Shown: one piece after another, positions 22,032 through 61,691 of the stretch | Numbering within the stretch: position 1 is the stretch's first letter | Layout: each line of letters begins with the position of its first letter | Virus record (IMG/VR): IMGVR_UViG_3300045016_000216 | Strand: one strand, 5' to 3' | Origin: an uncultured virus (IMG/VR IMGVR_UViG_3300045016_000216) | Taxonomy: Duplodnaviria > Heunggongvirae > Uroviricota > Caudoviricetes | Length of the DNA: 64,000 bases | Made by a program: the position numbers and the translations under genes | Notes under the pieces: model-generated | Database searches by the model: none | What the model was told of the DNA's origin: nothing | What the model saw: only the letters and a program-made list of their open reading frames with translations

Positions 22032-22038
22032 GAGTAAA

Positions 22039-24628: not shown

Positions 24629-24640
24629 GAGGACAATCTT

Positions 24641-30576: not shown

Positions 30577-30821
30577 GGCAGATTAGTATTTTGTTTAAGG
30601 GGATTGAGGAACAAAAATTAGATTATTATAAGTTAGGAGCTTCACTGTTTGGGGTAGATTTAGAAAAGGAATCTAAGAAGAGGGAAGAAGAAAACCGGAT
30701 GTTATTTAAGGACCCATCAGAGTATAACAATATGAGTGAAGAGGAAAAGCAGACTTTGACAGACAAAATGATGGGGCATTATAAAAAATGGGCCAATAAA
30801 GAAGGATTAACAGATGCCTAG
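30103..30821 (+). CDS. Tail assembly chaperone -1 frameshift product (gpGT-like)
   Basis: A9 at 30434-30442; -1 frame open from 30420 to TAG at 30821 and includes ORF 30591-30821. Confidence 0.75.
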
Positions 30822-33800
30822 CCGAGATTTATCACTTGGTATTTTATTTACTTCAAAGATAGATGGTACCTTTGACAGGATTGCCAAAGATATTAAATCT
30901 AAATTTGATCAAGTAAATGAATCAATGAAAAAGGTAACCAAATCTACTGAAGAAAGTAGAAGGGGTTTTATTACCTATGATTGGAGTTTAAAGAATATTA
31001 TAACTGATATGGAGAAACTCCTTGCAGTTCAAGCCAGATGGTATGGAGCTAAATTTGCTCTTTTTGCAGGAGTTCAATTACCTATACAATCTTTTAAAGA
31101 TGTGCTCGCTTATGTTAATCAGATTGAAGAAGCTAGAGCAGGTCTTTTAAGATGGGGTGCTACTTCGGGCCAAGTAACTTCAGATATGAAAAAACAAATA
31201 GACGGTCTTCTTATTTTAATGAGAAGAGCTACCACTGAGTTTCCTGTTACTTTGGAAGATTTAAGTAAATCAATGCAAGCGTTCGCTGGAGCAGGATTGC
31301 CTTATGGTGTACTTCAGGGCATGGTAGATGGTGTTGCCAAGTTAAGAGTTTCTTTTAAGGAAATAGATATTAATCAATGGGCTGTTGCTACTGTTGGTGC
31401 TTTTAATACTTTTAAGGATACTTTGACGGAAGTTAATACTGATGCTGAAAAAATGCTCTTAATTTTTGAGAAAATATTGAGAGCACAAGCTGTTGGTATT
31501 GCTAGACCTGAATCGTTTGCTAAAGTTTTACAGTATATGGGCCCTATTAGTAAAATGCTTGGAGGTTCTTTAGATCAATTATTAGCTATGTCTGTAGCTA
31601 TGTCTAATTTAGGTGGAAATATTGCTGCTGTTTCTAGAGTAACATCTACAATGTTACAAGCTATGAATACAGATAAGTTTAAAAAGATATTGGATGTATT
31701 GCAGATCAAAATTGATCCTAAGAAAACTTTATTTGCTCAGTTAGATGTTATAATGGAGGGATTAAGTAAAGCTGTAAATGAAAATAGTGAAATCGTAATG
31801 GGATGGTTTAACGTACTTACAAAAGGTATGGGGAGAGGAGAAGTTAGAGAACTTGTAAAATTGTTGCTGACTTATGGTACCGTTTATAAACAATTAACTA
31901 GGGATATAGCTGAATCTGCTGGAGGTCTTACTGCGGCTTCAGCTATTATGGCTATGCCCCCTTCTCAACAATGGATAATATTTTTAAATTTATTGAAAGA
32001 AGTGGGTAAAGCTGTTAATGAGTATTTAGGTCCCGATCTTCAAAAGGCTACAGGTAGATTAATTGATTTTGCTAGGGGTGTTCTAGTTGCCATTGATCCT
32101 ACAGGAACTTTTGCAGATAAATTAGATAAGTTAGGGTCTATAGGAAGATTTGCTTATAATATTACTGCCTCTTTGGTAAACGCTTTTAAAAATATATGGA
32201 CAGCTTTGAAACCTGTAGTTACTATACTTGAGGTGTTTTTAGGGGTTATTTTAAAGGTCACTTCTTGGTTAGCAGAACATACTAGGTTGGTGGAAATATT
32301 AGCTACTGTGATAATGGGAAGATTGTTGGTAGGATTAGGTTTATTGATATTTAGATTTACAGGATTAAGTGCCATATTGGATGTTACAATTACTTCTTTT
32401 AGAGTATTAGGCCTATCTGTTATTCCTTCTCTCGCTGCTGGATTTACTACTTTAATAGCTAGAATAAATCCATTAACTGCTGCTTTATTTGCTGCTGCTT
32501 CTGCTATGTCTTTACTTAATGCTATGAAGGAAGATTATGATTCAGAGTTAGGTAAATTTGAAGTAAAAATGTATGGTGCTTCTTTGAAAGAACAAGAGAA
32601 GGAGCTTAATAATTTAAAAGAGTATGTCAATACTTATGAGAAATTTTCAAAGTTTGATAAATTTAAAAGTGAGGGTAGACCTACATCTACTATTACAGGT
32701 AAGCCTCAAACAGGAGTGGAAGCAGGATATGATGCCCGTGCGTTGGATATAGTTAAAAAGAAAATAAGTTTTTTAGAACAACAAATAACATTAAAGAAAA
32801 AAGAGGAAGAATTCAATAAGAAAATGAAAAAAGGAGGAGGAGAGGAACCTCCCCCCTCTGTAGATAAAGAAAAATACAAATCTTATCTTGCTGATTTAAG
32901 ATCAGCACAAAAGGCAGAAAGTAGGGCTAGATTAGAACAAGTTAAAAATGATTATGCCACTGAGGAAAGACTTCTAGAAAATTCTTACAAAAACAGGACA
33001 ATCTCTGAAGAGGAATATCAAGAAAAGAAAAAGGATTTAAGAGAAAGGGGTAGAGATATTTTCTTTAGTGAATTGTTGGAAGAGTTTTATGAGATAAGGA
33101 ATAATTACGCAAGGGAGAGAGAGGAATTAGAAAAGGTTACTGATCCTTTGGAAAGGAAGAGAAGATTAGAAGTATCAGCAGCTAGGGAAAAGGCTGATAT
33201 GGAGAAGATAGTAACTGAAAGGTTGAAGTTTGAAAATAAACAAAGAATAGATTTGGATGATGATGTTACTAAGAATAGGGTTGAAAATATAAATAGAATT
33301 ATTGAGGCTATGACCACTGAGGCTAATCTGAATAGAATTGTTAGAGAAGGAGAAGCCGAGAGTTTAAGAAGACAAATAGATGCTGAGGAAGAATTAGCTG
33401 ATTTTAAATTTAGAAGAAAAGAAGTATCTTCAAGAGATTATTATGAGGATCAGGTAAGAAGGGAAACGGAATTATTTAATAAGAAAAAGGAATTATTAGA
33501 TAGGGAATTAATTAGTTATTATGCACTTTCTCAAGCTAAAATGGCAAAAGCAGGAGAGAATGTAGAAGAACAGGAAAAAATTCAAAATGACTTTTTAGAA
33601 AAGGTTCAGGAAAATAAAAATAAGCAAATAGCATTAGAAGAAGACTATGCAAATAAAGTGAGGGGGATTCATAGGAAGTTAGCTACTGATTTGGAAGAAA
33701 TTTACAGGACTGAAGGGTTAATGGGAACTGTAAGGGAAGGATTAAGAAGGTGGTTAGAAGAGGCTAAAACTACTGCTGAAGGTATTGTTGATATAGTTAA

Positions 33801-34665
33801 AGGCGTAGGAGATTCTTTAAGCGGGGCTTTATCCGATATGCTTTATTCTATGGGTAAAGGTACCTTTAATATAAGCAAAGAATCTGATATTAACAAGGCT
33901 GAAGATAAATTAAAACAGATAGAACTTGACAAACAAACCTTAGCTAATCAGAAAGAAGCCTTACAAAATCAAAGGGATTTAATTAGTAGTAATAACTCTC
34001 TTTCTGAATCGGAGAAGAGAAAACAGCAGGCCATTATTGATACACAAATAGCGGCTATTGCAGCACAGGAAGCCCAATTAGATGCTAATAAACAGATTGT
34101 GGAATCTCAAAAACGGGTAGCGGAGGGACAAACATCGTTATTAGATATATTTAGGAAATTTTTGGATGAATTACTTAAAATGATGACCCAATTTATAGCA
34201 CAGGAAACTGTAAAAGTCTTTCTAAAATATCTTGCACAAATAGTCGGTACATATTTTGGAAGTTCAGGAGGAAGTGCAGGAGGAAGTGCAGGAGGAAGTG
34301 TAGGAGGAGGCATAGGAGGAGGCATAGGAGGAGAGTATTATCGGATTCATAAAGGAGGGGTGATGGGTCAAGACATCATTCCTAAAAAATATATTGATAT
34401 GCTTCCTAGATACCATTCAGGGGTAGGTCCAGATGAGAGATTGTCTGTAATTAGAAAAAATGAAGGAGTTTTTACCCCAGGTCAGATGAAAGCTTTAGGA
34501 CAAAGGGATGTCAATGTTCAGATAAATTTAGAAAATAAATCTAGTCAACCTGTAACTGCTAAACAAGGTAAAACTCAGTTTGATGGTAAGAAGTATGTAA
34601 TAAGTGTTATCCTTGAAGATATTAGACAAGGTGGAGTTTTGAGAGGAGCTATAGCAAATGTCTGA
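30814..34665 (+). CDS. Tape measure protein
   Basis: 1283 aa helical/coiled-coil protein with hydrophobic middle and typical C-terminus (PRYHSG, NEGVFTPGQ). Confidence 0.9.
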   Translation: MPSRDLSLGILFTSKIDGTFDRIAKDIKSKFDQVNESMKKVTKSTEESRRGFITYDWSLKNIITDMEKLLAVQARWYGAKFALFAGVQLPIQSFKDVLAYVNQIEEARAGLLRWGATSGQVTSDMKKQIDGLLILMRRATTEFPVTLEDLSKSMQAFAGAGLPYGVLQGMVDGVAKLRVSFKEIDINQWAVATVGAFNTFKDTLTEVNTDAEKMLLIFEKILRAQAVGIARPESFAKVLQYMGPISKMLGGSLDQLLAMSVAMSNLGGNIAAVSRVTSTMLQAMNTDKFKKILDVLQIKIDPKKTLFAQLDVIMEGLSKAVNENSEIVMGWFNVLTKGMGRGEVRELVKLLLTYGTVYKQLTRDIAESAGGLTAASAIMAMPPSQQWIIFLNLLKEVGKAVNEYLGPDLQKATGRLIDFARGVLVAIDPTGTFADKLDKLGSIGRFAYNITASLVNAFKNIWTALKPVVTILEVFLGVILKVTSWLAEHTRLVEILATVIMGRLLVGLGLLIFRFTGLSAILDVTITSFRVLGLSVIPSLAAGFTTLIARINPLTAALFAAASAMSLLNAMKEDYDSELGKFEVKMYGASLKEQEKELNNLKEYVNTYEKFSKFDKFKSEGRPTSTITGKPQTGVEAGYDARALDIVKKKISFLEQQITLKKKEEEFNKKMKKGGGEEPPPSVDKEKYKSYLADLRSAQKAESRARLEQVKNDYATEERLLENSYKNRTISEEEYQEKKKDLRERGRDIFFSELLEEFYEIRNNYAREREELEKVTDPLERKRRLEVSAAREKADMEKIVTERLKFENKQRIDLDDDVTKNRVENINRIIEAMTTEANLNRIVREGEAESLRRQIDAEEELADFKFRRKEVSSRDYYEDQVRRETELFNKKKELLDRELISYYALSQAKMAKAGENVEEQEKIQNDFLEKVQENKNKQIALEEDYANKVRGIHRKLATDLEEIYRTEGLMGTVREGLRRWLEEAKTTAEGIVDIVKGVGDSLSGALSDMLYSMGKGTFNISKESDINKAEDKLKQIELDKQTLANQKEALQNQRDLISSNNSLSESEKRKQQAIIDTQIAAIAAQEAQLDANKQIVESQKRVAEGQTSLLDIFRKFLDELLKMMTQFIAQETVKVFLKYLAQIVGTYFGSSGGSAGGSAGGSVGGGIGGGIGGEYYRIHKGGVMGQDIIPKKYIDMLPRYHSGVGPDERLSVIRKNEGVFTPGQMKALGQRDVNVQINLENKSSQPVTAKQGKTQFDGKKYVISVILEDIRQGGVLRGAIANV
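34267..34332 (+). repeat. 12-bp tandem repeat (5.5 units) encoding Gly-rich linker in tape measure protein
   Basis: GGAGGAAGTGCA x2, GGAGGAAGTGTA, GGAGGAGGCATA x2, GGAGGA. Confidence 0.85.
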
Positions 34666-35613: not shown

Positions 35614-35977
35614 TAAACAATTTGAATATGGAGCTAGAGGACCTAATACTTTTGATTGTTATGGTTTATTGATGGAGGTTTATAGGAGAAGAGGAATTAT
35701 TTTAGAGGATCTTATCTCTCCTGATAATAAAGGTTTGATAAATGCTGTAGTAGAAGAAAAGAAAATTGATTGGATACAGATTGACAAGCCAGAACCTTTT
35801 TGTGCTGTAACGTTTAAGGTTAAAGGGTTATATTCTACTCATATCGGGGTAATTTTACCTGATCTAAATAGTTTTATTCATTGTATTGAAAAGAAGCAAG
35901 TGGCTATAGAGAAACTTAATCATCTACTTTGGAAGAATAGAATAAGCGGGTTTTATAAATATGCTTCAGATAGTTAA
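35594..35977 (+). CDS. NlpC/P60 tail assembly protein (gpK-like)
   Basis: GARGPNTFDCYGL, HIGV, FIHC. Confidence 0.85.
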   Translation: MLLDLLNKQFEYGARGPNTFDCYGLLMEVYRRRGIILEDLISPDNKGLINAVVEEKKIDWIQIDKPEPFCAVTFKVKGLYSTHIGVILPDLNSFIHCIEKKQVAIEKLNHLLWKNRISGFYKYASDS

Positions 35978-38900
35978 AGTAAATGATCCTTTGAATAGAA
36001 GAAATAAGGAAACTCGATCAATTCCTATGAGAGGACAATCTGTTAAGGAATTGAGAGATGAACTTATTCCTAGAGATGTAAATATAGTTACTTCTTTAAA
36101 TGGGAAAATATTGCCCAATGATTCTCTTGATCTTTATAAAGTGAGAGATAAAGATTGTATAACCTTTGTTCCTGTATTCGGTAGTAGTAATAATGATTGG
36201 AACATGGTATTGAAATTGGTTGTAGCGGTTGTAGCTATAGTAGTAATGGCTTATTCTGGTCAATGGTGGGGTGTGGGACCTTTGGCTGCTGCGTTAATAG
36301 GTATGGGTATTAGTATAGTTGGTAATTTTTTAGTTGATATGTTATTGCCTATAGAATACAAATTACCTTCTATCGGAGGGTTTAATATTGGTCCCCCTAA
36401 ACCTATTAGTTATACTCCCCCTTCTGCACCAGGGGGCTATGGCAGTTCTATGGGGGGAGTTGGAGAAGGTTATGATACTTCTCAAGTTTTTTCTTGGAGT
36501 CCTCAGACTACTCAACAAGAGGGAGGAATGATTCCTAGATTTTATGGATATAGCAAAGTACATGGTAATATCATATCAGGTAATATAGAAAGTCAGCCAG
36601 GTGCGGCAGGGGTAGCTGCCCAGAGAGTGTTTACTACTTATTGTGGTGAGGGAGGAGGTCCGAGAGAAGAAGAAACTGAATATTATAGGCTCAATACAGT
36701 AAGAAGTGAAGCTTTAGCTAATTATGAGAATAAGAAAGCCATATCTGATGCAGCCTACAAAGCTTATTTCGATAGTTATTCATATGATCCTTATAGTATG
36801 TCAGGGGGCGGGTTTAATGAGGTACTCCGGAACATTTGGCAACTTGCTTTAGTTGAAACAAATGCGGCTCTTCTTGCGTTAAATGCAGCTACATCTAATT
36901 ATAATGCCGCTGGTTATATCTTAAATGTAGTGGGCGGGTATCCTGCACGGATAGAAGAATGTGAGACAGTTTCAGAATTGGTAGGGGGATACCCAGGAAC
37001 TCCTGACTCCAATTATTTGAATGTTTTGATTCATTTAGGATTAGGTCCTATATATGGTATAAGTGATATAAAGATAAATGATCAAGATTATACCAAGTAT
37101 GATAATATAATTGTGGAAGATGTTTTAGGTAGCATGGATCAACCTATGATTGAGAATTTCAATGATACTAAAGTTGAATATTCTATGTCTATTCAAGTTG
37201 AAGGAGGTAGTTCTTATACTTATACTACACAAGGGGATTATTTTGATGCTTTGGAAGTAAAGATTATATTCCCTAGAGGGTTATTTTCAGTTGATAATGA
37301 TTATGGAGATATGAATTATCATTCTGTAGGGTTTCAAGTTGATGCTAGGAAAGTAGGGGATACTACTTGGGTTAGTTATGCAAGTGGTAGTTATACAGAT
37401 TGTAAATCTATGGCTATAACTAAAGTTGTGAAATTTTCTGTTCCTAGCAAAGGTCAATATCAGATAAAAATATCGAAAACCTCCGCAGAACAAACCAGTT
37501 CTAAATATGGGGATGTTATGTATGTGTCCTCAATATCAGAAATAATTTATGATGATTTTCAATATCCAAGACAAGTATTAGTAGGAGTTAAGGCTTTAGC
37601 AACTGGACAAATATCAGGATCATTTGATTTTTCGTGTATAGTGCAGGGAGCATTGATCAGGGTTTATGATGGAATAAGTTGGGCAGTAATTTTCTCCAAC
37701 AACCCTGCTTGGGTAGCTTATGATATTTTAACTCAGCCTGTTTTTGATAACGATTTGAATGTGATCAGATATGATGGATTTGATCCTGTATACATAGATA
37801 CTGATGCCTTTTATGAATGGGCTCTTTATTGTGATACTCCTGTTCCGGATGGTAAGGGGGGTACTGAAAGTAGATTCACTTTTAACGGAGGGTTTGATGC
37901 CTTAACTACAATGTGGGATGCAGTCATGAAGGTCTGTGAAATGAGTAGGGCCATGATTGTAGCTACAGGTACTAAATATTCTGTTTTTGTTGATAAACCT
38001 ACAAATCCTTCCCAGTTATTTTCCGTAGCCAATATTTACATGGATACTTTTCAAGAGGTATTCCTACCTATGGAAGATAGAACATCAGAATTGGAAGTGG
38101 AATACCTCAATTCCGAAAATGATTACCAAAGGGAAACCTTTAATGTTTATAATGATGAGATAGGTAATGATAGCAATAAAGTTTTATTACAACTTATAGG
38201 AATAACCAAACAATCGGAAGCTTACAGAATAGCCAAATTAAGGTTACTTTACAATCAACACTTAACCAGGGCAATTACTTTTGATGTTGATGTAGATGCC
38301 ATAGCTTGTACTGTTGGTGATGTGGTACTAGTTCAACATGATGTACCTCAATGGGGTTATGGGGGTAGAATAATAAGTGCTACCACTTCTACTGTGACTT
38401 TAGATCAAGAAGTAACCATGACTTATGATACTTATTATTCTATATTGATTAGGTTATATGATAATACTGTAGTAGAAAGGCAAGTTCTTACAGAGCCGGG
38501 TACTACAAGTGTTTTGACACTTACCTCACCTTTTACTACACTTCCTCAAAAGTATGATCCTTTTGCATTTGGGGAAACTGATACTGAAGCAAAACCTTTT
38601 AGAGTTGTAGGTATAACAAAGTCACAAGATTTTAAATGTACCATATCTGGCATAGAATACAATCACTCCCTTTATTCTGTAGATGATGAAACTCCAGTAA
38701 TTACTACCTTAGAATATTCAACATTAGATCCTCTTCCTGATGTAGAAAATATAAAATTAGATGAATTGATTATAAAAAGTTCGGATGGCACATTAGTAGA
38801 TTGTATTGATGTCTATTATTCAGTACCCGAAAATAGTTTTTTCGACCATGTTGAAATATGGTACAGACAATCTTCTCCATTTTATACTACTGATATAGCC

Positions 38901-40070
38901 GATGTTAGCAACCCTATTTTTGCAGGTACGGATAAAAGTGGTAGATTCAGAATAAGGGGTGTACAAACAGGATGGAATTATATTATTTCCATTGTGACTG
39001 TAAATGTTTTAAACAAGAAAACGGCTTTAACTGATGCCCCTTGGTCTGAAATTTTAACTCAAGGTAAATTAGATCCGCCTTCTAATGTTACAGGATTTGC
39101 GGCTATTCAAGATGGACAATTTGTTAGTTTTAAATGGACACATATTGAGGACGGTGATTTATGGGGGTATGAAATAAGAAAAGGAGCTAGTTGGGAAACA
39201 TCTACAATTTTAGTTACAGGGATTTCCAAGGATAAGTGGACTTGGAAAGCCGAAATGGATGGTACTTTTCGTTTTCTAATCAAAGCTATTGATTCCTCAA
39301 ATCTTTATTCCAGTACTGCTGCTAGTGCTGATTTAACTTTAAGTGGAATAGATGATTCCATTAATATTATAGTTGTTCAAGATGAAATAACTAAATTAGG
39401 AGGTCCTGATGGAACTTTTACCCATATGTCTTACAGTGGAGAAATTCCTGCTGTTGTTGTTCAGTATGGTTATACAGACTGGGCTTCTTATTTATCTAAT
39501 GGTGTTGACTTTGAGCAAGAGGGAACTATAGGAATAAGATTATCCAACGTTTTTGATGCTTCGGATCCTAGTGCTACAGATTTAAGTTATCCGGATAGAA
39601 CAGATTTAACTTATCCCTCAGATACGGATGATCATGTTACTATGATACCCGAAACTAAAATGTATTACCAATACAGTAGTGATGATATTACTTATTCTGC
39701 CTCTGGAGAATATTTCGGGATAGATCAAGAAGTCTTCCGTTATCTAAAAGCTGAGTTTAGAGTTAAACTGCCTACTTCTACAGGTTTATTTGAATTACAG
39801 CATTTTTATATAGCTGGTGATGTTCCTGATGTAGAGTTTGAATTAAATAATTTTCATGTGTCTGGAGAGACAGGAACAGATGTAATTTTAGCTAATTATG
39901 GATACAATCTGCGTGTAGCTCCTGTTGTTCAAGCTACCATAAAAGGTGCAACTAAAGCAATAGTTCCTATTGTTTCGGGTGAAAGCAAAACGGGGTTTCA
40001 TATTGATTTGCTTGATATTTCTGATACTAAAATTTCTGGGGAAGTTAATTTAAAGATCACAGGATATTAA
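35961..40070 (+). CDS. Tail tip/host specificity protein (gpI+gpJ-like fusion)
   Basis: N-terminal ubiquitin-like segment plus hydrophobic helices, IPRFYG, NNPAWVAYDILT, GDVVLVQHDVP, FN3-like repeats. Confidence 0.88.
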   Translation: MLQIVKVNDPLNRRNKETRSIPMRGQSVKELRDELIPRDVNIVTSLNGKILPNDSLDLYKVRDKDCITFVPVFGSSNNDWNMVLKLVVAVVAIVVMAYSGQWWGVGPLAAALIGMGISIVGNFLVDMLLPIEYKLPSIGGFNIGPPKPISYTPPSAPGGYGSSMGGVGEGYDTSQVFSWSPQTTQQEGGMIPRFYGYSKVHGNIISGNIESQPGAAGVAAQRVFTTYCGEGGGPREEETEYYRLNTVRSEALANYENKKAISDAAYKAYFDSYSYDPYSMSGGGFNEVLRNIWQLALVETNAALLALNAATSNYNAAGYILNVVGGYPARIEECETVSELVGGYPGTPDSNYLNVLIHLGLGPIYGISDIKINDQDYTKYDNIIVEDVLGSMDQPMIENFNDTKVEYSMSIQVEGGSSYTYTTQGDYFDALEVKIIFPRGLFSVDNDYGDMNYHSVGFQVDARKVGDTTWVSYASGSYTDCKSMAITKVVKFSVPSKGQYQIKISKTSAEQTSSKYGDVMYVSSISEIIYDDFQYPRQVLVGVKALATGQISGSFDFSCIVQGALIRVYDGISWAVIFSNNPAWVAYDILTQPVFDNDLNVIRYDGFDPVYIDTDAFYEWALYCDTPVPDGKGGTESRFTFNGGFDALTTMWDAVMKVCEMSRAMIVATGTKYSVFVDKPTNPSQLFSVANIYMDTFQEVFLPMEDRTSELEVEYLNSENDYQRETFNVYNDEIGNDSNKVLLQLIGITKQSEAYRIAKLRLLYNQHLTRAITFDVDVDAIACTVGDVVLVQHDVPQWGYGGRIISATTSTVTLDQEVTMTYDTYYSILIRLYDNTVVERQVLTEPGTTSVLTLTSPFTTLPQKYDPFAFGETDTEAKPFRVVGITKSQDFKCTISGIEYNHSLYSVDDETPVITTLEYSTLDPLPDVENIKLDELIIKSSDGTLVDCIDVYYSVPENSFFDHVEIWYRQSSPFYTTDIADVSNPIFAGTDKSGRFRIRGVQTGWNYIISIVTVNVLNKKTALTDAPWSEILTQGKLDPPSNVTGFAAIQDGQFVSFKWTHIEDGDLWGYEIRKGASWETSTILVTGISKDKWTWKAEMDGTFRFLIKAIDSSNLYSSTAASADLTLSGIDDSINIIVVQDEITKLGGPDGTFTHMSYSGEIPAVVVQYGYTDWASYLSNGVDFEQEGTIGIRLSNVFDASDPSATDLSYPDRTDLTYPSDTDDHVTMIPETKMYYQYSSDDITYSASGEYFGIDQEVFRYLKAEFRVKLPTSTGLFELQHFYIAGDVPDVEFELNNFHVSGETGTDVILANYGYNLRVAPVVQATIKGATKAIVPIVSGESKTGFHIDLLDISDTKISGEVNLKITGY

Positions 40071-42350: not shown

Positions 42351-42722
42351 ATGTCAAAATTTGTTTTCGGGTCAATGAGAGGATTAGTTGAGAAGGAAAC
42401 TTTTGCTTATGATGAAGAGTTGAATAATGGTAATAGTGGCTCTGCTAAAACGATAAATTGGAAGTTAGGAAATAGACAGAGGATAACATTAACTGGAGCA
42501 CCTTGTGTTTTTACTTTTACAAATCCACTTTCACCAGCAGTATTGACCTTAAAATTAATACAAGGTTCGGGGGGAAGTAAAACTGTAACTTGGCCTAGTT
42601 CGGTCAAGTGGGTAGGTAGAACTGCTCCAACTTTGACTACTACTGCTGCCTATATTGATATTGTTGGTATGTATTTTGATGGCACAAATTATTATGCTAC
42701 TGCTTCTTTAAATTTTGGATAA
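42351..42722 (+). CDS. Tail fibre-type beta domain protein
   Basis: LKLIQGSGGSKTVTWPSSVKWVGRTAPTLTT..ID, a motif common in phage fibre proteins; GGAGGA RBS. Confidence 0.6.
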   Translation: MSKFVFGSMRGLVEKETFAYDEELNNGNSGSAKTINWKLGNRQRITLTGAPCVFTFTNPLSPAVLTLKLIQGSGGSKTVTWPSSVKWVGRTAPTLTTTAAYIDIVGMYFDGTNYYATASLNFG

Positions 42723-42727
42723 CTAAA

Positions 42728-43207
42728 ATGGCTCTAAAAAGTTGTGTATGTGACTTAGTTTGTTATTCTCAATCCTGTCAATGTAATGCAACTAGTTATG
42801 GTTATTCTGCCTGTAGTTGTAATAGTACCTGTTATGGAGAAAGTTGTTCTTGTAATAGTACCTGTTATGGAGAAAGTTGTTCTTGTTATGCTACTTGTTA
42901 TGATTATGTTGCCTCTAGTTGTGGCTGTTATGCTACTTGTTATGTAGATGTAAAAGAGTCATGTGCTTGCAATCTGATCTGTTATAATGAGGTTCCTTAC
43001 AGTTGTACCTGTTATTCAACTTGTTATGGTCAAGGGTGTACTTGTAATGTTACTTGGTATGGTACAGGTTGTACTTGTAATACTACCTGTTATGGTTATT
43101 CTGCCTGTAGTTGTGATTCTACTTGTTATAATCAAACCTGTACTTGCAATTCTACTTGTTATGGGGAATCTTGGAAAATGGATGCTATACAAATAGGAGA
43201 TATGTAA
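42728..43207 (+). CDS. Cys-rich repeat protein (12x CxCxxxCY), candidate radical SAM substrate
   Basis: 34 Cys in 159 aa; 10 perfect and 2 degenerate repeats; coupled to downstream gene by TAATG. Confidence 0.8.
   Translation: MALKSCVCDLVCYSQSCQCNATSYGYSACSCNSTCYGESCSCNSTCYGESCSCYATCYDYVASSCGCYATCYVDVKESCACNLICYNEVPYSCTCYSTCYGQGCTCNVTWYGTGCTCNTTCYGYSACSCDSTCYNQTCTCNSTCYGESWKMDAIQIGDM
42817..42886 (+). repeat. Perfect 33-bp tandem duplication in Cys-rich gene
   Basis: TTGTAATAGTACCTGTTATGGAGAAAGTTGTTC x2 (+TTGT). Confidence 0.9.
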
Positions 43208-43914
43208 TGCCCATTCTACAATTACTAGATGAGGATTATGTTAGTGAAGGGTCAGCTTTTAGTGATGATGTTAGGGTCGTTGATCTTTATAAACCTAGAC
43301 CTGAGTTTATTCCGGATTGGACCAAAAAATCACAAAGTTATACTCATTCTATTGATTATTCTTCAATTACAGGTGATATTTCAGGGTCGGATAAATATTG
43401 TTTAGGGGGATTAATAAATGTAAATGGTACACCTACTCCTATTATGATAACTTCATTTATAAGAACTCCTAATCATGCTATTCAAGTATGCAAAAGTGGG
43501 TGGCTTGTTGCTTATTTAGTAAATCCTGAATATGTTGGCCATGAATGGGTGACTTGGTTTTCTAAAGTGATGATACATATTTTCAGTTCTATGATAGATG
43601 ATTCTTTTATTTTCTCCTATATAGTATTAGACAATGAAGGATACTATGATAGGGAAACTATGGGGAGATGTGTTGTTGCTTCCTGGGATGGTACAGGGGT
43701 TAAAACCAAAAAACAAAAAATCAAACCTATGAAATATGACATGATAGTTATTAAGGATTATGTTATTGATAATAAATGTGTTCAAGTTATCCAAATAAAG
43801 GATGTTTTTCAGACAGATGCAACAATTCCAAATGATAGGAAAAAGTATCACAAGGATAAAATCAAAAAGCATAAGGATAAAAGGGATGAAAAAATTAGAC
43901 TTTCCAATCAATAG
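43207..43914 (+). CDS. Hypothetical protein (possibly GNAT-like)
   Basis: 235 aa from ATG 43207; AYLVNPEYVGHEW resembles GNAT motif A. Confidence 0.5.
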   Translation: MPILQLLDEDYVSEGSAFSDDVRVVDLYKPRPEFIPDWTKKSQSYTHSIDYSSITGDISGSDKYCLGGLINVNGTPTPIMITSFIRTPNHAIQVCKSGWLVAYLVNPEYVGHEWVTWFSKVMIHIFSSMIDDSFIFSYIVLDNEGYYDRETMGRCVVASWDGTGVKTKKQKIKPMKYDMIVIKDYVIDNKCVQVIQIKDVFQTDATIPNDRKKYHKDKIKKHKDKRDEKIRLSNQ

Positions 43915-46165
43915 GTGTAGTATTGACCTAACTGAAAGATGTAACTTGAAATGTGAATATTGTCATGTTGCTGGCACAAGTGTATTACTTCCTGATTTTA
44001 CAACAATCAAAATAGAAAACCTTGACATTGGAGATGATGTTTTGGGTTTTGAGAAAAGAGAAAAAAATAAATTTTGTAAATTAATAAAAACGAAAGTAAA
44101 AGGAATATCAAAAAGATTATCTCCTATAATAACTATAATAACGGATAAGGGAACTACTAGATGTACACCTGACCATAGATGGTTTAATGGAAGATATTAT
44201 GTTCCTGCTAAAGTAGGGGGGACAATTAGATATTTATTTAATAATGTTCTTACACCTGATAAATCATTAGATTATAAACGGGGTTGGTTAAGTGGTATGT
44301 ATGCAGGAGATGGAACACCTAAGAAATATAATTATGGAAACAGGATACATTATAGATGTAGACTTGTCTTAAAGGATTTAGAAGCTATAGATCAAGCTGT
44401 ACAATTTTCAAAAGAGATCGGATTTACACAACACCCTTTCTGTTTTGAAGGTTTAAATGCTATTAGAAACAACACTAAGGAATTTTTTGATTTTTTGGTT
44501 TCTACTTTGGACACTACTGAATTTAAAAGAGGATGGGTTGCTGGGTTTTTTGATGCTGAAGGTTCTTATAATAATGTCATAAGAATAGCTCAGAGTGAAA
44601 ATTCCAGTCTATCTTTACTTTGTACTTATCTAAAAGAATTGGGATTTTTTTATAAATTGGAACATTATAAAGACTGCAAGGGAGTAAGAATAGAAGGGGG
44701 AGTGCCTGAATATATTAGGTTCTTTGCATTTTTTGATACTTGTTTAAAAAGAAAAACAGAAATGTTAAGTCAAAAATCTTTGTCTAACAGTACCTACATA
44801 AAGGAAATTATTTTAGAACGTGATGAGGATTTTGTTTATAATATCACTACGGGAACTGGAAATTACATAGCTGAAGGAATGGCTTCTAAAAATTGTTTCA
44901 CATATGGAGTAGGCAAGAGAGATTTAACTTTTAATCAAGGTGTAAAGATTATTGATTGGTTGTTTAGAGATGAAGTTTCCCAATCAAATGAAATAGAGAT
45001 AAATTGGTGGGGAGGAGAACCTTTTATTAAATTCAATTTGATGAGGAATCTTACTGAATATGCTGTAAAAAAGGCTCAGAAAGAGAAAAAAAGATTAACA
45101 GTAGGAGGAACATCTAACGGGACTTTATGGAGTAAAGAAGTTGTTGATTGGATGGACAAAACAAGAGCTTATTTTTTGATTTCTATTGATGGCATAAAGG
45201 AAGTTCAAGATAAATATAGACCAACAATAAATGGAGGAAGTAGTTATGATGCAATTTTAAAATATCTTCCCTATACATTACAGAAAATACCATTCATTCG
45301 GTCAAGAATGGCCCCTACTCCTGATACTGTAGATAAACTTTTTGAGAGTATTAAGTTTTATTATGATATGGGAATAACTACTCAAATGTTTTCACCTGTA
45401 TTTGAGTATGATTGGACTGAAGAGGCTTTAAAAAAAGCTAAAGAAAATTTAATGAATTTATCTGACTTCATGATTGAAACTCAAAAAAGGGGCAAACCTT
45501 TAAACATAACTCATTTAGACAATAATGCCAAAAGTTTGTACATGCACAAGGAAGAAAGGCAGTTCCCATGTGGTGCAGGAAGATTTTATGTGGGATTTGG
45601 CGTAGATGGTCTTATTTATCCTTGCCACAGATTCAACAAATACAATTCTAGATTAAGTGATAATTCTATAGGTTCAATAAGTGAAGGTATAACCAAACCT
45701 CATATCAGAAATGGTTTTATAAACTTTTTAGATTGTGTACCCGATAAGTGTAAAGATTGTAGATGGTATGGAAATTTGTGTGATGTATCCTGTTACTCTA
45801 TTAGTTTTGATTTTACCGGAAGCATTTTTACTCCTCCTGATGTTTATTGTAAATGGATGAACGTTTTAGGAGAATCTTCCCAATACTATTATAATCAACT
45901 TATACACAATAAACTACCAATAAAAGGTACGAATATGAATAAGTCTTGCATTTGTAACAACATGTGTTATTTGGAAGGAACTCCTAATGAAATTAAAACT
46001 ATTGATAGGTCAACCGATCATTCTTGTATTTGTTATAACACCATGTATTCTGGAGGGAGAGATGATCAGAGTAGGATATTGAGTTTACAACCTGCTGATA
46101 ATGAAATCCAAAAATTAACCCAATCAGTTAATGAATTGATACAATTACTTAGGGAGAAACTTTAG
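43886..46165 (+). CDS. Radical SAM/SPASM peptide/protein maturase containing an intein
   Basis: LTERCNLKCEY-[intein]-CF, WWGGEP, TSNGTL, ISIDG, CGAG...DGLIYPCHRF, CKDCRWYGNLCDVSC...C. Confidence 0.9.
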   Translation: MKKLDFPINRCSIDLTERCNLKCEYCHVAGTSVLLPDFTTIKIENLDIGDDVLGFEKREKNKFCKLIKTKVKGISKRLSPIITIITDKGTTRCTPDHRWFNGRYYVPAKVGGTIRYLFNNVLTPDKSLDYKRGWLSGMYAGDGTPKKYNYGNRIHYRCRLVLKDLEAIDQAVQFSKEIGFTQHPFCFEGLNAIRNNTKEFFDFLVSTLDTTEFKRGWVAGFFDAEGSYNNVIRIAQSENSSLSLLCTYLKELGFFYKLEHYKDCKGVRIEGGVPEYIRFFAFFDTCLKRKTEMLSQKSLSNSTYIKEIILERDEDFVYNITTGTGNYIAEGMASKNCFTYGVGKRDLTFNQGVKIIDWLFRDEVSQSNEIEINWWGGEPFIKFNLMRNLTEYAVKKAQKEKKRLTVGGTSNGTLWSKEVVDWMDKTRAYFLISIDGIKEVQDKYRPTINGGSSYDAILKYLPYTLQKIPFIRSRMAPTPDTVDKLFESIKFYYDMGITTQMFSPVFEYDWTEEALKKAKENLMNLSDFMIETQKRGKPLNITHLDNNAKSLYMHKEERQFPCGAGRFYVGFGVDGLIYPCHRFNKYNSRLSDNSIGSISEGITKPHIRNGFINFLDCVPDKCKDCRWYGNLCDVSCYSISFDFTGSIFTPPDVYCKWMNVLGESSQYYYNQLIHNKLPIKGTNMNKSCICNNMCYLEGTPNEIKTIDRSTDHSCICYNTMYSGGRDDQSRILSLQPADNEIQKLTQSVNELIQLLREKL
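43961..44893 (+). mobile_element. Intein with LAGLIDADG homing endonuclease (311 aa)
   Basis: N-term CHVAGTSV, block B CTPDHRW, WLSGMYAGDG and WVAGFFDAEG, C-term VYNITTGTGNYIAEGMASKN followed by Cys+1. Confidence 0.92.
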
Positions 46166-46754
46166 ATTCCCCGTTTTTCTGTTCTACAGTTATTACTTTA
46201 TCTGCGGCATTTAGTAGATTTTGTTGATCGGTTACCATTATAATTTGAAGTCTAAGCTCTTCAGATAGTTTCTTTATCATTTCCGAAGCTTTTTCTTGGT
46301 AAGTAGGATTGTGTAGAAACTTTGTAGGTTCATCCCATATCATCACATTCCTAGATTTTTTGATGGACCATAAAGCAACAGGTAAAGCTATGTTTGAAAC
46401 TATGTCACAAACCCCTCCACCTCCTGAATTTACAATATCATCAGTCTCTTTTCCATTTTTGGAAAAGATTAAATCGCACTCAGTTTTGTTTCTTCTCTGG
46501 ACAAAATTTATAGAGAATTTGTAAGGATCTTCCCATACAGAAGCGAGTGCCATTGATACTAAGTTTGAAATATGGTATTCTAGTTTCTTTTGCACTTGTT
46601 CTGCCACGGTCTGTACAATAGCCCTTGCCTTAGTTCCCGTTTTTAGATCCTCTTCATATTTCTCTAAGTTAGCTTTTTCTTTAATGATATGCTCTTTCAG
46701 TAAATCCCTTTGAGCAATTTCCTTTGCCAATCTTTTTTTATATTCCTCTATCAT
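46149..46754 (-). CDS. SbcC/Rad50-like ATPase, C-terminal half
   Basis: Coiled coil, signature-like NSGGGG, Walker B MIWDEP, ADKVITV. Confidence 0.8.
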   Translation of the reverse strand: MIEEYKKRLAKEIAQRDLLKEHIIKEKANLEKYEEDLKTGTKARAIVQTVAEQVQKKLEYHISNLVSMALASVWEDPYKFSINFVQRRNKTECDLIFSKNGKETDDIVNSGGGGVCDIVSNIALPVALWSIKKSRNVMIWDEPTKFLHNPTYQEKASEMIKKLSEELRLQIIMVTDQQNLLNAADKVITVEQKNGESKVSP

Positions 46755-46935
46755 ATTTCCATAATCCCGTTAGAGTTCCTCTACATTTACTGCAAACATT
46801 TATAGATTTCGTTTCATAATGGTTTTCAAAAGGGAAACCTTTAAAAGGTATTCTTAAAATTATCTTTTTTAGGTCTTCAGAGTAAACAAATTGCCAACAA
46901 TAATCACACTTTTTTCTTTCTTTGAAGATCACCAT
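46738..46935 (-). CDS. Small zinc-binding hypothetical protein
   Basis: CDYC...CSKC. Confidence 0.45.
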   Translation of the reverse strand: MVIFKERKKCDYCWQFVYSEDLKKIILRIPFKGFPFENHYETKSINVCSKCRGTLTGLWKYDRGI

Positions 46936-47168
46936 TCATAATTTTCCTTTAATTCTTTAAACCCCTTTTCTATTTCTTCACCTAATGCTATTAATTGGTT
47001 ATCCATTTTGGTCAAATCTTTTCCTGCTTCTTCAACTGAAGAATACCCTAAGTCTTTTAATTGTTTCATTAATTGGATTTTTTGTCCCTCAAATTGTGCA
47101 ATATTACTTTTTGCCTTATCTATTTCCTTAGACAAAGAATCTAGTTCTTTAACAATGTCATAGGCCAT
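46929..47168 (-). CDS. Small coiled-coil protein
   Basis: 79 aa heptad-rich; coupled to upstream gene. Confidence 0.55.
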   Translation of the reverse strand: MAYDIVKELDSLSKEIDKAKSNIAQFEGQKIQLMKQLKDLGYSSVEEAGKDLTKMDNQLIALGEEIEKGFKELKENYEW

Positions 47169-48028
47169 TACAAACTCTCCTCAATATAAGTTTTGATTGA
47201 GTTATCAATTTTGTTATCTTCTATAAATTGGAACAAAGATTCCACAAAATTTAATCCCATCTCTTTTTGCTGTGATAATCCTTTTACGAAAGCTTCTAGT
47301 TCCTCATTTCTTTCCTTCTCTTTTTCCTTCAAATCCATAACTTCCTCAATAGGTTTAACGGGAATGTATTGGTATTCAACTTCTTTTGTATCTGTGTCAT
47401 AAGTAACAATCATAGGCTTGTGGTCTTTTTGATCTATTCTTGATCTCATTAATGACCCACAATTAACCAAGATTTTGTCACCCCATTCTACAATAAAGGA
47501 TTTGTGATTGTCTCCTGAAACTATTAAGTCAAAGTTATTATTAGCTAAAATGTGATTAGCCCAAGTGTGTCCTTCTTGCTCTGCCCATAGTTTTTCATCT
47601 ACTATCATCTTATGGATCAAAAGAATGTTTATTCTGCTATTGGTAGTTATCTTCGGGATTTCTTCTCCCCATGAACATCCATAAATTGAAATATCCATAA
47701 TATTTTTTATTCCTATCACTTCTACTTGTTCTACTTCATTCAAGAGAGCTAATGGGGAGTTTTCTTTTGAAGTGTGGTATCTTAGATCATGTTGTCCAAA
47801 AACTGTATAAATAGGTGTATAGCAAAATGTTTTTAGAAATTGCGTTGTTTCTAAGGTTAAGGAATAAGGAGCCATAGGGGAATCAAAAAAATCACCAGGT
47901 TGGAGGACTGTAAACTCCTGATTTAATATCCATTCTAATTTTTTAAACAGAGATTTCTTGTAATTATCAATCCTATTTTCTGGCCTATTTGCTCTTATGT
48001 GCCAATCTCCAGTACATAATATGATCAT
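47168..48028 (-). CDS. SbcD/Mre11-like metallophosphoesterase nuclease
   Basis: GDWH, PGDFFD, GQHD, SGDNH, NCGSLMR. Confidence 0.87.
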   Translation of the reverse strand: MIILCTGDWHIRANRPENRIDNYKKSLFKKLEWILNQEFTVLQPGDFFDSPMAPYSLTLETTQFLKTFCYTPIYTVFGQHDLRYHTSKENSPLALLNEVEQVEVIGIKNIMDISIYGCSWGEEIPKITTNSRINILLIHKMIVDEKLWAEQEGHTWANHILANNNFDLIVSGDNHKSFIVEWGDKILVNCGSLMRSRIDQKDHKPMIVTYDTDTKEVEYQYIPVKPIEEVMDLKEKEKERNEELEAFVKGLSQQKEMGLNFVESLFQFIEDNKIDNSIKTYIEESL

Positions 48029-48399
48029 GAAAGTATCCTTATCGTTACAGGAATTAATCCTAATTTTACTGCATTTAATCTTTTAGCTGCACCTAAAGAC
48101 AAGTCAATCATTCTACCTTTTATGTAAGGACCTCTATCATTCACTCTCGCTAATATGGTTTCGTTGTTATTTAGATTAGTTATTCTTAACACAGTTCCTA
48201 AAGGTAGCGTTTTGTGGGCTACTGATATATTGTGCATGTTATAAATTTTACCATCAGCCCTTTTTTTTCCATGGAATTTAGTACCATACCAACTAGCAAT
48301 TCCTTTATATTCTATTTTTACTATCTTTTTGGATGAGGTAGAACTTATCGTATTAAGGGGGGTAAGACTAAGTATAATCAGAAATAATATTATTTTCAT
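48025..48399 (-). CDS. rlpA: RlpA-like lytic transglycosylase (DPBB) with signal peptide
   Basis: GIASWYG..FHG, AHKTLPLGT, RVNDRGPY, RMIDLS. Confidence 0.88.
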   Translation of the reverse strand: MKIILFLIILSLTPLNTISSTSSKKIVKIEYKGIASWYGTKFHGKKRADGKIYNMHNISVAHKTLPLGTVLRITNLNNNETILARVNDRGPYIKGRMIDLSLGAAKRLNAVKLGLIPVTIRILS

Positions 48400-49489
48400 C
48401 TAGGTATCCTTCAAATGTTATTCTATTTAAAGTTTCATTATCTATTGGGGATAGACAGATTGGACAAATTTTATGTTCCTTTAACAGTTTTATGTATTCG
48501 GTTTGGTAGGTTTTTAAATCCTTTTTGTTATATTCTATACTTGCATTAACCAAATTTAGGTTGTTTTTCCAATTTTCAAGTTCATCTGCTTTATACCCTA
48601 GTTCCGTTTTTTTATCCAATTTCTCACCTAGAGATTTGTAAAGGGGTTCAACAGTCAACCATTCTCTCTCATTCTTTGTTTTGGTTTTTATCTCTTCTAG
48701 GTCAGAAATTATTTTATGTAGGGAAAAGTAATGATACTTTAATTGAACCTGTTTCACCAGTTTTTCTTTTAATACCTTCATTTTTGCTTCAGCTTTTAAA
48801 ATCTTTTTCTGATTTTCAATTTTAGAGTTCAAATCAGCTACAGAAACACACAAACCACGAACAGAAACACGCTGGATTTCAACGATCTCTTTTTTCTTGA
48901 CTGATACATCAAGTTTTTCTATCAAAGCAGAAATAAGCTCTATATGAGCATATTTTTCAAGGTCACTCTCAAGGTCAGAAATGATACTTTTTGTGTGTTC
49001 TATGCTTGATTTGGTAGAAGTAATTTTGGTGTTAATATTTTTATATAATTTGTCAATTACATCCAGCCCAACTAGTTCATTCAGTTTTCTAGCTACTTCT
49101 CCTGGGGAATCTTGTAATAGAAAGTAGGGTTGGTGTTGAGTTTGGATATTGTAGTCAGTTATCTTGGTTATTTCTTGAACTTCTTCAGGAATCTCAGACC
49201 TAAAAGCTTCTAAGTTTCCCGATTGTGTAATGTAAACGTTACTCTTACCTCTCTCTTTAGACAACTCACCATCATCAAACTCAATACCAACCCTAGTTAT
49301 TGCTTCAGGATTATCCCAATTTTTAAAATCATCTCCAAGTGGTTTATTGTTGATAACCCAAAGCAAAGCTCTAATTATAGCAGATTTACCAGAATCGCTG
49401 GCACCTGTTATAATGTTTAGGCCTTTATTAAATTCTATGACACTATCTTTGTGGGATTGAAAATTTTCAATTTCTAGGGAATTTATCAT
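48368..49489 (-). CDS. SbcC/Rad50-like ATPase, N-terminal half
   Basis: IENFQSH, Walker A GASDSGKS, Q-loop IQTQ, coiled coil ending in Zn-hook CPIC. Confidence 0.85.
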   Translation of the reverse strand: MINSLEIENFQSHKDSVIEFNKGLNIITGASDSGKSAIIRALLWVINNKPLGDDFKNWDNPEAITRVGIEFDDGELSKERGKSNVYITQSGNLEAFRSEIPEEVQEITKITDYNIQTQHQPYFLLQDSPGEVARKLNELVGLDVIDKLYKNINTKITSTKSSIEHTKSIISDLESDLEKYAHIELISALIEKLDVSVKKKEIVEIQRVSVRGLCVSVADLNSKIENQKKILKAEAKMKVLKEKLVKQVQLKYHYFSLHKIISDLEEIKTKTKNEREWLTVEPLYKSLGEKLDKKTELGYKADELENWKNNLNLVNASIEYNKKDLKTYQTEYIKLLKEHKICPICLSPIDNETLNRITFEGYLDENNIISDYT

Positions 49490-61505: not shown

Positions 61506-61691
61506 TTCGGGTTCTATGATTTCCTCCGCAAAATATTCCTCCTTCTCTTTTACAAGTTTAAGTACCGTTTCACATTCATTTAGATAATAAAAGGAAATCA
61601 ATCTATTGTACTCCGGCAATCTTTCCTTGAACTCTTTTTCCTTTTTGATGTCTGATAACTGTGGGAAATTACCTGCAAAGTAGAGAATCAT
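61470..61691 (-). CDS. Small protein resembling the N-terminal segment of phage TGT/DpdA-like proteins
   Basis: MILYFAG...NRLISFYY; overlaps the 3' end of the DpdA-like gene. Confidence 0.5.
   Translation of the reverse strand: MILYFAGNFPQLSDIKKEKEFKERLPEYNRLISFYYLNECETVLKLVKEKEEYFAEEIIEPEFKKTKQKGFKI

Follow-up and report, generated by a model that had tools for sequence, protein, structure and literature searches.

SPASM-domain radical S-adenosylmethionine (SAM) enzymes that cross-link cysteine-repeat proteins are already known, and this text concerns a phage locus that appears to belong with them: a three-gene cassette (positions 42,728 to 46,165) in a stretch of 64,000 nucleotides (nt) from an uncultured Caudoviricetes virus (IMG/VR record IMGVR_UViG_3300045016_000216), the whole of which is called the window here. 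The cassette comprises the gene of a Cys-repeat protein, an open reading frame (ORF) for 235 amino acids (aa) and the gene of a SPASM radical SAM enzyme. CrpC of Methanococcus voltae (TIGR04463) installs ranthionine thioethers on CrpA, a Cys-repeat protein with ten copies of a 17-aa unit carrying C-X-X-Q/D and with a low-confidence prediction of a β-helix (Dieter et al., 2026; PMC13692751). CrpC/CrpA is the closest precedent: in both cases the gene of a SPASM radical SAM enzyme lies beside that of a Cys-rich repeat protein, and the actual or presumed substrate is a protein, not a short peptide. Unlike the window system, CrpC possesses a RiPP (peptide made by ribosomes and modified after translation) recognition element (RRE) and CrpA a leader-like N-terminus of 47 residues; unlike CrpA, the window protein has a unit of 11 aa with three Cys, in the context of a phage tail module. 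The text of the CrpC paper makes no mention of phages, and no substrate-like enzyme tail or intein turned up in the sections consulted (PMC13692751).

Other described systems resemble the locus in part. PapB makes repeated Cys-to-Asp β-thioethers, as in freyrasin (PMC8326336), and abstracts describe its activity as leader-independent and promiscuous. The PapB/PapA family (NF047865) is the best-scoring curated family for the window enzyme, yet the score stays below the cut-off, so that the two are not equivalogs. PapA is a short precursor of secreted type, unlike a fibre module. Its motif is reportedly CxxxD, which also differs from the window unit. In Streptococcus orisratti, NxxcB links Cys23 of NxxcA to the β-carbon of Asn20 (PMC8326336); this N-x-x-C geometry is identical to N4-x-x-C7 of the phage unit, a likeness of motif geometry alone, and NxxcA, unlike the phage array, bears a single link in a short quorum-regulated peptide. 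QhpD makes Cys-to-Asp/Glu thioethers in a protein subunit, QhpC, that is not a RiPP (PMC8326336), and its family (TIGR03906) is the second-best NCBIfam match of the window enzyme; its substrate, unlike that of the window, is non-repetitive and its context non-viral. Finally, CteB, the enzyme of CteA (SCIFF; PDB 5WGG/5WHY), which has three clusters in its radical SAM and SPASM parts, is the closest solved structure by profile and by fold, and differs in that its substrate is a 45-residue peptide with a leader and that its part before residue 96 is without counterpart in the window enzyme.

In the literature searched (open-access papers and bioRxiv, with few subscription journals), no description was found of a radical SAM enzyme from a phage that modifies fibre or virion proteins. 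What sets the window system apart is that it stands in a phage tail module, that leader and RRE are both missing, that the enzyme has a substrate-like tail and that an intein interrupts the cluster motif. The reading preferred here, which we judge probable with ample room for error, is that the cassette serves the enzymatic Cys-to-Asn/Asp thioether stapling of a β-solenoid fibre module.

The repeat protein and the enzyme of the window

The first-pass annotation of this DNA had described a 159-aa protein with 12 repeats and 34 Cys that starts 5 bp after a fibre-type gene, and translation of 42728-43207 bears this out; the protein also contains 19 Tyr, and the preceding gene, which ends 5 nt before it at 42722, has tail-fibre matches among the PHROG families. 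Units start at residues 6, 17, 29, 40, 51, 65, 79, 93, 104, 115, 127 and 138, that is, with a spacing of 11–14 residues, and at the DNA level the period is 33 nt (Tandem Repeats Finder). Eleven of the units read CxCxxx[C/W]Y and one CxCxxxSY, and three have Tyr at position 4. Shuffling the protein 20,000 times within its own composition gives a mean of 0.82 units and a maximum of 6, against the 12 observed. The annotation had also placed the first repeat at residue 5, with no leader before it: the absence of a leader stands, while the first repeat Cys is residue 6. The protein is likewise without a docking domain.

Two observations on the DNA of the array may be added. One low-depth contig of one sequencing run (X11, depth 2) skips 33 nt, exactly one unit, at 42816-42850, and in two other runs the assemblies are broken within the array; this hints that the copy number of the unit varies.

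The enzyme gene (43886-46165, + strand) encodes 759 aa including an intein. Translation from the ATG at 43886 reads MKKLDFPINRCSIDLTERCNLKCEY, then a 311-aa insert, then CFTYGVGKRD..., and the intein-less homologue P0011 (from locus L001; 484 aa, 53% identical) reads CNLRCKYCFTYGVGKRDLTF, which shows the boundaries of the insert. As read from these sequences, the insert is an intein at the third Cys of CxxxCxxC, because it begins with Cys (Cys1 in CHVAGT...) and ends with Asn, followed by Cys (ASKN, then C, at the C-terminal junction), because it contains two LAGLIDADG stretches (LAGLIDADG_3, E 4.4e-6), and because its 311 aa are precisely absent from P0011. The match to the N-terminal Hint region is weak (Hom_end_hint, E 0.11), and the penultimate residue is Lys; in inteins this residue is usually His. 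The model of intein-containing radical SAM enzymes, NF038136, matches over enzyme residues 19-339. Every junction-covering contig of four runs carries the intein, and no intein-less allele was seen among them. Since the intein sits on the third Cys, the radical SAM cluster site would exist only after splicing, which restores CNLKCEYC, the +1 Cys of the C-extein (the last letter of this motif) joining C19 and C23.

The enzyme had been taken for a SPASM radical SAM protein that reaches its CxxxCxxC within about 20 aa and has no N-terminal RRE, and each of these points holds. The motif starts at residue 19, WWGGEP is present, and PF04055 scores 35.8 bits (cut-off 29.5). The SPASM domain shows C-x17-C (with G-x4-C), C-x4-C-x2-C-x6-C-x3-C, a gap and a last C, eight Cys altogether, of which seven are invariant or at least 90% conserved in 53 sequences, and TIGR04085 scores 42.5 bits on P0011 (cut-off 27). 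When the profile of the family is compared with solved structures, CteB comes first (E 7e-62), aligned over its residues 96-444 only. The part of CteB before residue 96 we take to be its RRE; no RRE is assigned to the window enzyme because the alignment starts after it.

A search of curated families, as the first-pass annotation had advised, places the PapB model NF047865 at the top (195.8 bits), followed by QhpD, nif11 and SCIFF, and P0011 matches the PapB profile at 208.4 bits over positions 2-329 of 330. In every named family the curated cut-off is missed: that of NF047865, an equivalog model, is 340 bits, that of TIGR03906 is 453 (139.9 bits obtained), that of TIGR03974, the SCIFF/CteB type, is 425 (135.3 bits, with no RRE and no SCIFF-like peptide seen) and that of TIGR04463, the CrpC type, is 525 (40.3 bits); the anSME model gives 56 bits. 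An AlphaFold2 model of P0011, with a predicted local distance difference test score (pLDDT) of 88.4, has CteB as its nearest fold (E 1.6e-21, template modelling score, TM, 0.63/0.72, root-mean-square deviation, rmsd, 3.2) and anSME as the second (E 8e-18). Taken together, these matches support a place for the enzyme in the clade of thioether-forming SPASM maturases (CteB/PapB/QhpD), as judged by homology. The marks of a classical RiPP pathway are absent: there is no leader before the repeats, no RRE and, as the annotation had also said, neither a transporter nor a protease among the neighbours of the cassette in the window.

The C-terminal tail of the enzyme contains two units that resemble those of the repeat protein, followed by an amphipathic helix (Table 1); the two units had not been listed in the first-pass annotation. 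This tail is kept in nearly all close relatives, in the form s-C-i-C-[N/Y]-N-M-C-Y-l-E-G-T, some 17 residues, C-x-C-[Y/N]-N-t-n-Y-x-G and a long amphipathic helix. Among 37 sequences, C352, C354 and N356 of the first unit are invariant and M357, C358 and Y359 at least 90% conserved; in the second unit C378 and C380 are invariant and Y385 and G387 reach at least 90%. Beyond the repeat gene, the two tail units are the only occurrences of C.C....Y in any six-frame ORF of the window, and the tail aligns with two adjacent units of the repeat protein at E 4e-4. All this is evidence that the enzyme tail copies the repeat unit of its putative substrate. In the model of P0011 the two units lie in blocks of pLDDT 73-77 and about 42-57, and the helix, at 449-483, in blocks of 81-93. 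An in-frame ATG stands at 45935-45937, four codons before the first tail unit, with AAGG 7-10 nt upstream; in principle, a start at this codon could yield the tail by itself as well, a product of 76 aa with both units and the helix.

The conservation of the tail in nearly all close members of the family could mean that the enzyme modifies its own tail and that the repeat proteins are an unrelated or secondary expansion of the motif, and the closest viral relative, L004, has the tail and is flanked each way by 10 kb in which no repeat protein is encoded. Nevertheless, the enzyme and the repeat arrays are strongly linked whichever of them is taken as the starting point (see below), and the enzymes of L016 and L023 stand next to Cys-rich ORFs and have no tail, which means that the tail is not needed for the pairing; we regard self-modification as the least probable of the explanations considered. 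A tentative and rather doubtful extension of the stapling reading is that the maturase, leaderless in its substrate and lacking an RRE, carries two rungs of the substrate solenoid at its C-terminus, docks on or nucleates the fibre solenoid with them as a built-in template, and installs a ladder of thioether staples, with the intein as a splicing-dependent switch.

Co-occurrence of enzyme and repeats, and the setting of the repeats

Comparative genomics gives good support to the link between enzyme and repeats. When viral contigs were scanned with the alignment of the enzyme family, 79 loci came up, 20 of which are close relatives (tblastn E<=1e-34); locus L004 lies on the same contig as L001. 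Counting as a Cys-repeat ORF any other ORF with at least four CxCxxx.[YHFWDN] units, 13 of the 20 close loci hold one; three more (L016, L020, L023) have Cys-dense ORFs of other flavours directly upstream, for example CDxCDxxC or CxxCxxC, and at L006 a J-like protein carries just a short run of units. Close relatives on short contigs of metagenome-assembled genomes give a similar picture, three of four (L093, L094, L097) having a Cys-repeat ORF directly upstream or nearby. As controls, ORFs with three or more units were found at none of 15 distant viral SPASM loci (L024-L038) and at none of 76 loci of distant cellular homologues (about 1.15 Mb). ORFs with 3-4 units occur at 12 of the 44 weakest viral matches (L039-L082), and the six of these that were inspected are other fibre-like proteins with CNCNC-type runs.

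These six (L039, L041, L058, L064, L071, L074), phage proteins with Cys/Asn runs, lie less than 10 kb from a weak match (E ~1e-7) to the N-terminal radical SAM region of the enzyme family, and those of L058 and L074 end, judged by eye, in a C-terminal region of fibre chaperone type. The theme may be wider than the CxCNxTCY unit.

The reverse survey was run on viral and metagenome contigs with a degenerate DNA pattern for two adjacent units. In viral DNA the pattern occurs in seven stretches, six holding the enzyme family and the seventh (L089) a second SPASM radical SAM family; in metagenomes it occurs in 68 stretches on 62 distinct contigs, and one or other of the two families is present on 33 of the 62. 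Among repeat loci with at least 5 kb of sequence the count is 20 of 24, and among shorter ones 13 of 38. At L089, a siphophage tail module, a 204-aa stand-alone repeat protein is followed two genes on by a 333-aa enzyme of the second family, which is also found at L005, L008 and L018. The co-occurrence survey proposed in the first-pass annotation has thus been carried out, and enzyme and repeats are linked in both directions, in tail modules in the relatives. Searches of GenBank phages gave no tblastn match to the repeat protein and enzyme matches at no more than 29% identity, and a search with a narrower alignment of the repeat protein returned only two copies of one known locus.

Several of these cassettes contain two to four radical SAM/SPASM paralogues (L005 7476-13754, L008 9935-13714, L018 9887-15062, L089 8006-9753). 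Members of the second family have about 333-387 aa, and in L005, L008 and L089 they are preceded by a conserved protein of about 240 aa that belongs to no known family. At L179, L184, L199 and L213 the match to the enzyme family is broken into pieces of about 60-105 aa, for which frameshifts, assembly errors or another genetic code are possible reasons.

In the relatives, the repeats are embedded in larger proteins, of 246-781 aa in viral loci, and the protein library has examples that reach about 1,200 aa. Such proteins match the Pfam domains C1q, F5/8 type C and collagen trimerisation, and an N-terminal domain (SWT...HF-x-ELQDAINAWE) as well as a YxYPWT end is common to many of the relatives. 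In the protein of L008, an array of 28 units with 87 Cys separates the two halves of what seems to be a C1q-like head; C1q matches are seen at L017 and L010, and J-like tip proteins at L013 and L006. As for the surroundings, L022 is a myovirus baseplate and fibre block, L018, L019 and L089 have collagen-like fibres, and L005 and L008 carry capsid and virion genes together with their two to four radical SAM paralogues. When 1.84 billion cluster representatives were searched exhaustively with phmmer, just 34 proteins reached E<=1e-3 and just 12 reached E<=1e-10, two of them spurious eukaryotic ones, and a protein atlas search gave no usable match to the repeat protein. On these comparisons the repeat module is rare, and looks phage-borne and fibre-associated. 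Two loci differ in their setting: in L183 (4282-6524) a PAAR-motif protein lies directly beside a 639-aa repeat protein, and L190 (3-10748) bears repeats with no radical SAM gene nearby.

The earlier preference for a virion component over a secreted peptide is strengthened by the position of the relatives' repeats inside proteins of fibre or receptor-binding type in tail modules. The cassette might instead make a free product outside the virion, that is, a RiPP-like peptide or protein directed against competitors or the host, with a moron-like, incidental position in the genome. The repeat protein of the window is indeed small and lacks a domain for docking to a fibre, RiPP pathways are where the enzyme clade is most familiar, and the cassette stands at the very end of the structural arm, at a strand switch. 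Such a product is, however, very improbable in our view, given that leader, RRE, protease and exporter are missing, that the relatives' repeats are internal to fibre-like proteins of 246-781 aa with C1q, discoidin or J-like parts, and that the cassettes lie inside the tail modules of different phage types.

Unit consensus, fold and proposed chemistry

Statistics on 835 units from 69 proteins give the consensus [S/A/G]-C-[S/T]-C-[N 65%, D 20%, Y 8%]-x-[T 54%, S 12%]-C(91%)-[Y 74%]-G-[Y/Q]-[S/T]. Position 4 is thus Asn or Asp in 85% of the units, with Cys at -3, -1 and +3 relative to it, and the unit holds both C1-x-C3-N4 and N4-x-x-C7. Cys-to-Asn/Asp thioethers are proposed because Asn and Asp are acceptors in known β-thioether systems, because of the CrpC precedent, and because both geometries are present in the unit; this chemistry is a well-motivated proposal.

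The repeat protein was modelled with AlphaFold2 from an alignment of 14 relatives (mean pLDDT 66.5, predicted TM score 0.52), and in the model each unit takes a strand-turn-strand form with two short strands. Foldseek finds nothing at E<=0.001 for this model, and its weak top rows are left-handed β-helices. In a comparison with 48,161 chains by VIA-align all top matches are β-solenoids, with Z of 9-11.5; for repeats, a value under about 13 may mean no more than a shared arrangement. They include the UspA1 head (Z 11.5, rmsd 9.1, 152 residues aligned), a ryegrass ice-binding protein (Z 10.6, rmsd 7.7, 100 aligned), TibA (Z 9.5, rmsd 3.6, 151 aligned) and Ag43 (Z 9.2, rmsd 3.7, 143 aligned); phage tailspikes rank lower. 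A narrow β-solenoid with one unit per rung is a plausible prediction for the repeat protein.

Three Cys per 11 residues, with a C1-C7 spacing of 6, would also suit a solenoid stabilised by metal or by disulfides (metallothionein- or antifreeze-like), the radical SAM enzyme performing some other reaction or acting on some other target, such as anSME-like Cys oxidation or cluster or metal insertion; presumably this spacing resembles that of the disulfide-bridged rungs of the Tenebrio β-helix antifreeze protein. The reaction of the enzyme is not set by family membership, anSME is its second-best structural match, and the authors of the CrpC paper suggest a metal-related role for CrpA (PMC13692751). 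Nevertheless, the best matches of the enzyme are thioether maturases (PapB at 196 against 56 bits for anSME, and CteB ahead of anSME in structure), and Asn or Asp at position 4 in such a majority of units would be needless for metal or disulfides alone. Phage particles are assembled in a reducing cytoplasm, in which disulfides form poorly, and this too disfavours the disulfide variant, so that we consider the explanation as a whole unlikely.

The consensus bears on another proposal, according to which the repeats are mainly a scaffold for glycosylation or other decoration (N-x-T sequon in CNxTC, Ser/Thr-rich rungs) and the radical SAM enzyme is an accessory to that pathway. With Asn in 65% of units at position 4 and Thr or Ser in 66% at position 6, many units are N-x-T/S; the repeat proteins of L183 and L190, which have no radical SAM gene, lie beside glycosyl-, methyl- and sulfotransferases; a GT2-methyltransferase fusion stands two genes upstream in L022; the window has transferase genes of its own; and TibA, a hyper-glycosylated solenoid, is among the structural neighbours. 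On the other hand, most loci pair the repeats with radical SAM/SPASM genes and have no adjacent glycosyltransferase, the transferase genes of the window lie about 17 kb from the cassette, and the Asp that replaces Asn in 20% of units fits a thioether acceptor and not an N-glycan site. Decoration as the main function is therefore decidedly unlikely, although glycosylation and stapling are mutually compatible. The window genes in question, at 19261-25690 (+) inside the structural arm, are two glycosyltransferase-like genes and a Nol-like carbamoyltransferase gene (phrog_1601, E 7e-114), and they may bear on the N-x-T sequons of the repeats.

According to the stapling reading, the cassette would be a protein-modification cassette in which the leaderless 12-unit array is the substrate of the adjacent RRE-less maturase, which would become active only once the intein splices out and CxxxCxxC is restored. 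The enzyme would abstract a side-chain hydrogen from the Asn or Asp at position 4 of each unit, and the resulting carbon would be joined to a neighbouring Cys thiol, either that of C7 (N-x-x-C, as in NxxcA) or that of C1 (C-x-x-N/D, as in CrpA), yielding one or more thioether (ranthionine) staples per rung. The staples would form in the reducing cytoplasm, either ahead of fibre assembly or while it proceeds, would replace disulfides irreversibly and would stiffen a segment of the virion fibre. For recognition, the enzyme would probably rely on the repeats and on its own substrate-like tail (two units and helix), not on a leader. The fold, the residues that act as acceptor and donor, and what the tail does are predictions of this scheme.

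Several observations weigh against the stapling reading. Between four and seven of the 20 close viral enzyme loci are without a Cys-repeat ORF: L004, L007 and L015 have none and L006 has its short run, and although L015 offers 811 nt of upstream sequence only, L004 has 10 kb on each side and still no such ORF. In the reverse direction, four repeat loci of at least 5 kb (L182, L183, L190, L216) are without these radical SAM families, two of them being the loci flanked by transferases instead. The survey sets overlap: of the seven viral hits five, and of the metagenome loci no fewer than five, had already been found through the enzyme or belong to the phage of the window (L217). About 8% of units, including the three of the window protein, have Tyr at position 4, and the pLDDT of the repeat model is middling. 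The enzyme lies below the curated cut-off of every named family, so that its reaction cannot be transferred by membership. Lastly, the window repeat gene adjoins tail-fibre genes, whereas fusions to C1q-like, discoidin, collagen-trimerisation or J-like parts occur in relatives only, and the place of the stand-alone window protein in the virion is deduced from those relatives.

Genomic setting and significance

The window is a segment of a phage genome whose PolA is about 25% identical to that of the best GenBank phage, and by this measure the phage is far from any isolate; runs of lake-water metagenomes carry DNA nearly identical to it. The structural arm on the + strand encodes the tape measure protein, minor tail proteins and the J-like tip protein, after which come four small fibre-type genes ending by 42722. 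The cassette closes this arm at the strand switch, the end of the radical SAM gene (46165) being convergent with the first gene of the - strand, from which, from 46149 onward, replication and repair genes follow. By gene order and homology, the cassette constitutes the last genes of a siphophage-type tail module. A scan of the window for promoters and terminators gave fewer sites than shuffled sequences did, and nothing usable.

Table 1. Positions of the cassette genes, their parts and neighbouring features in the window
Feature	Positions	Strand	Remarks
Tape measure	30814-34665	+	structural arm
J-like tip protein	35961-40070	+	phrog_31, E 6e-148
Small tail-fibre-like protein	42351..42722	+	123 aa from ATG; 138 aa from TTG at 42306
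Cys-repeat protein, 159 aa	42728..43207	+	12 C-x-C-[N/D/Y]-x-x-[C/S/W]-Y units; no other domain; presumed substrate
235-aa ORFan	43207..43914	+	TAATG-coupled to repeat gene; overlaps enzyme start (43886) by 29 nt
N-extein, 25 aa	43886..43960	+	C19 and C23 of CxxxCxxC; aligns to P0011 residues 2-30
Intein, 311 aa (ORF aa 26-336)	43961..44893	+	Cys1...Asn311, +1 Cys; LAGLIDADG homing endonuclease
C-extein, 423 aa and stop	44894..46165	+	radical SAM core with WGGEP, SPASM domain with 8 Cys, C-terminal extension
Tail unit 1, CICNNMCY	45947..45970	+	aa 688-695 of the 759-aa ORF
Tail unit 2, CICYNTMY	46025..46048	+	aa 714-721
C-terminal amphipathic helix	46088..46162	+	about the last 25 aa; present across family tails
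ATPase C-terminal piece of SbcCD-like set	46149-46754	-
Metallophosphoesterase of SbcCD-like set	47168-48028	-
DPBB lytic-transglycosylase-like gene	48025-48399	-	inside the split SbcCD-like set
SbcC-like N-terminal ATPase	48368-49489	-

The 235-aa ORF between the repeat gene and the enzyme gene has the TAATG coupling (43205-43209) and the overlap with the radical SAM gene that had been assigned to it, and it is likely to be a real gene because its frame stays open over a long stretch of AT-rich DNA and the starts are coupled. There is no match in Pfam, NCBIfam or PHROG, none in the protein atlas search, and none but itself in a search of 5.8 billion proteins; tblastn detects no relative in loci L001-L082, and hhalign gives a probability below 1% for the partner families (of about 240 and about 270 aa) of other cassettes. 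Judged by these searches it is an orphan, specific to the phage of the window and outside the conserved enzyme-repeat pair.

The product of the fibre-like gene before the cassette has eight PHROG matches, four tail fibre and one tail assembly family among them; they include phrog_9017 (E 8.6e-11), phrog_22179 and phrog_7760. In the phase of this gene, 7 nt ahead of its stop codon, stands the heptamer T_TTA_AAT (42707-42713), where a -1 shift would enter the frame of the repeat gene, open from 42680, and would fuse the fibre-like domain to the repeats; in relatives both are found in one protein. A frameshift fusion of this kind is unsupported, as the downstream RNA folds no better than shuffled sequences (z -0.70), and the heptamer may be a chance occurrence.

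Two observations concern the - strand. A 605-aa ORF (61669-63486) has matches to queuine tRNA-ribosyltransferase/DpdA-like PHROGs at residues 4-144 only, and a LAGLIDADG_3 match at residues 359-413; it is probably a second intein-containing gene of this phage. Directly beyond the cassette, at 46149-49489, lies an SbcCD-like set that seems to be split.

As to what these findings mean, the link between the two genes would explain a recurrent and unannotated gene pair of environmental phages. If stapling is true, radical SAM thioether chemistry would reach large structural proteins, beyond the single archaeal example of 2026, and recognition through a substrate-like tail would be an RRE-independent principle; compact, repeat-addressable cross-linking modules would also become available for protein engineering. 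To our knowledge, the known covalent cross-links of virions are autocatalytic, for example the isopeptide bonds of the HK97 capsid, and the enzymatic stapling of fibres would be a mode of virion maturation not found in the literature searched. If the tail does act as a template, this would be the first enzymatically cross-linked tail fibre, with thioethers in place of the disulfides that are impossible in cytoplasmic assembly. The shared occurrence of enzyme and repeats across many phages suggests, on comparative grounds, that part of the fibre is stapled chemically by the virus itself.

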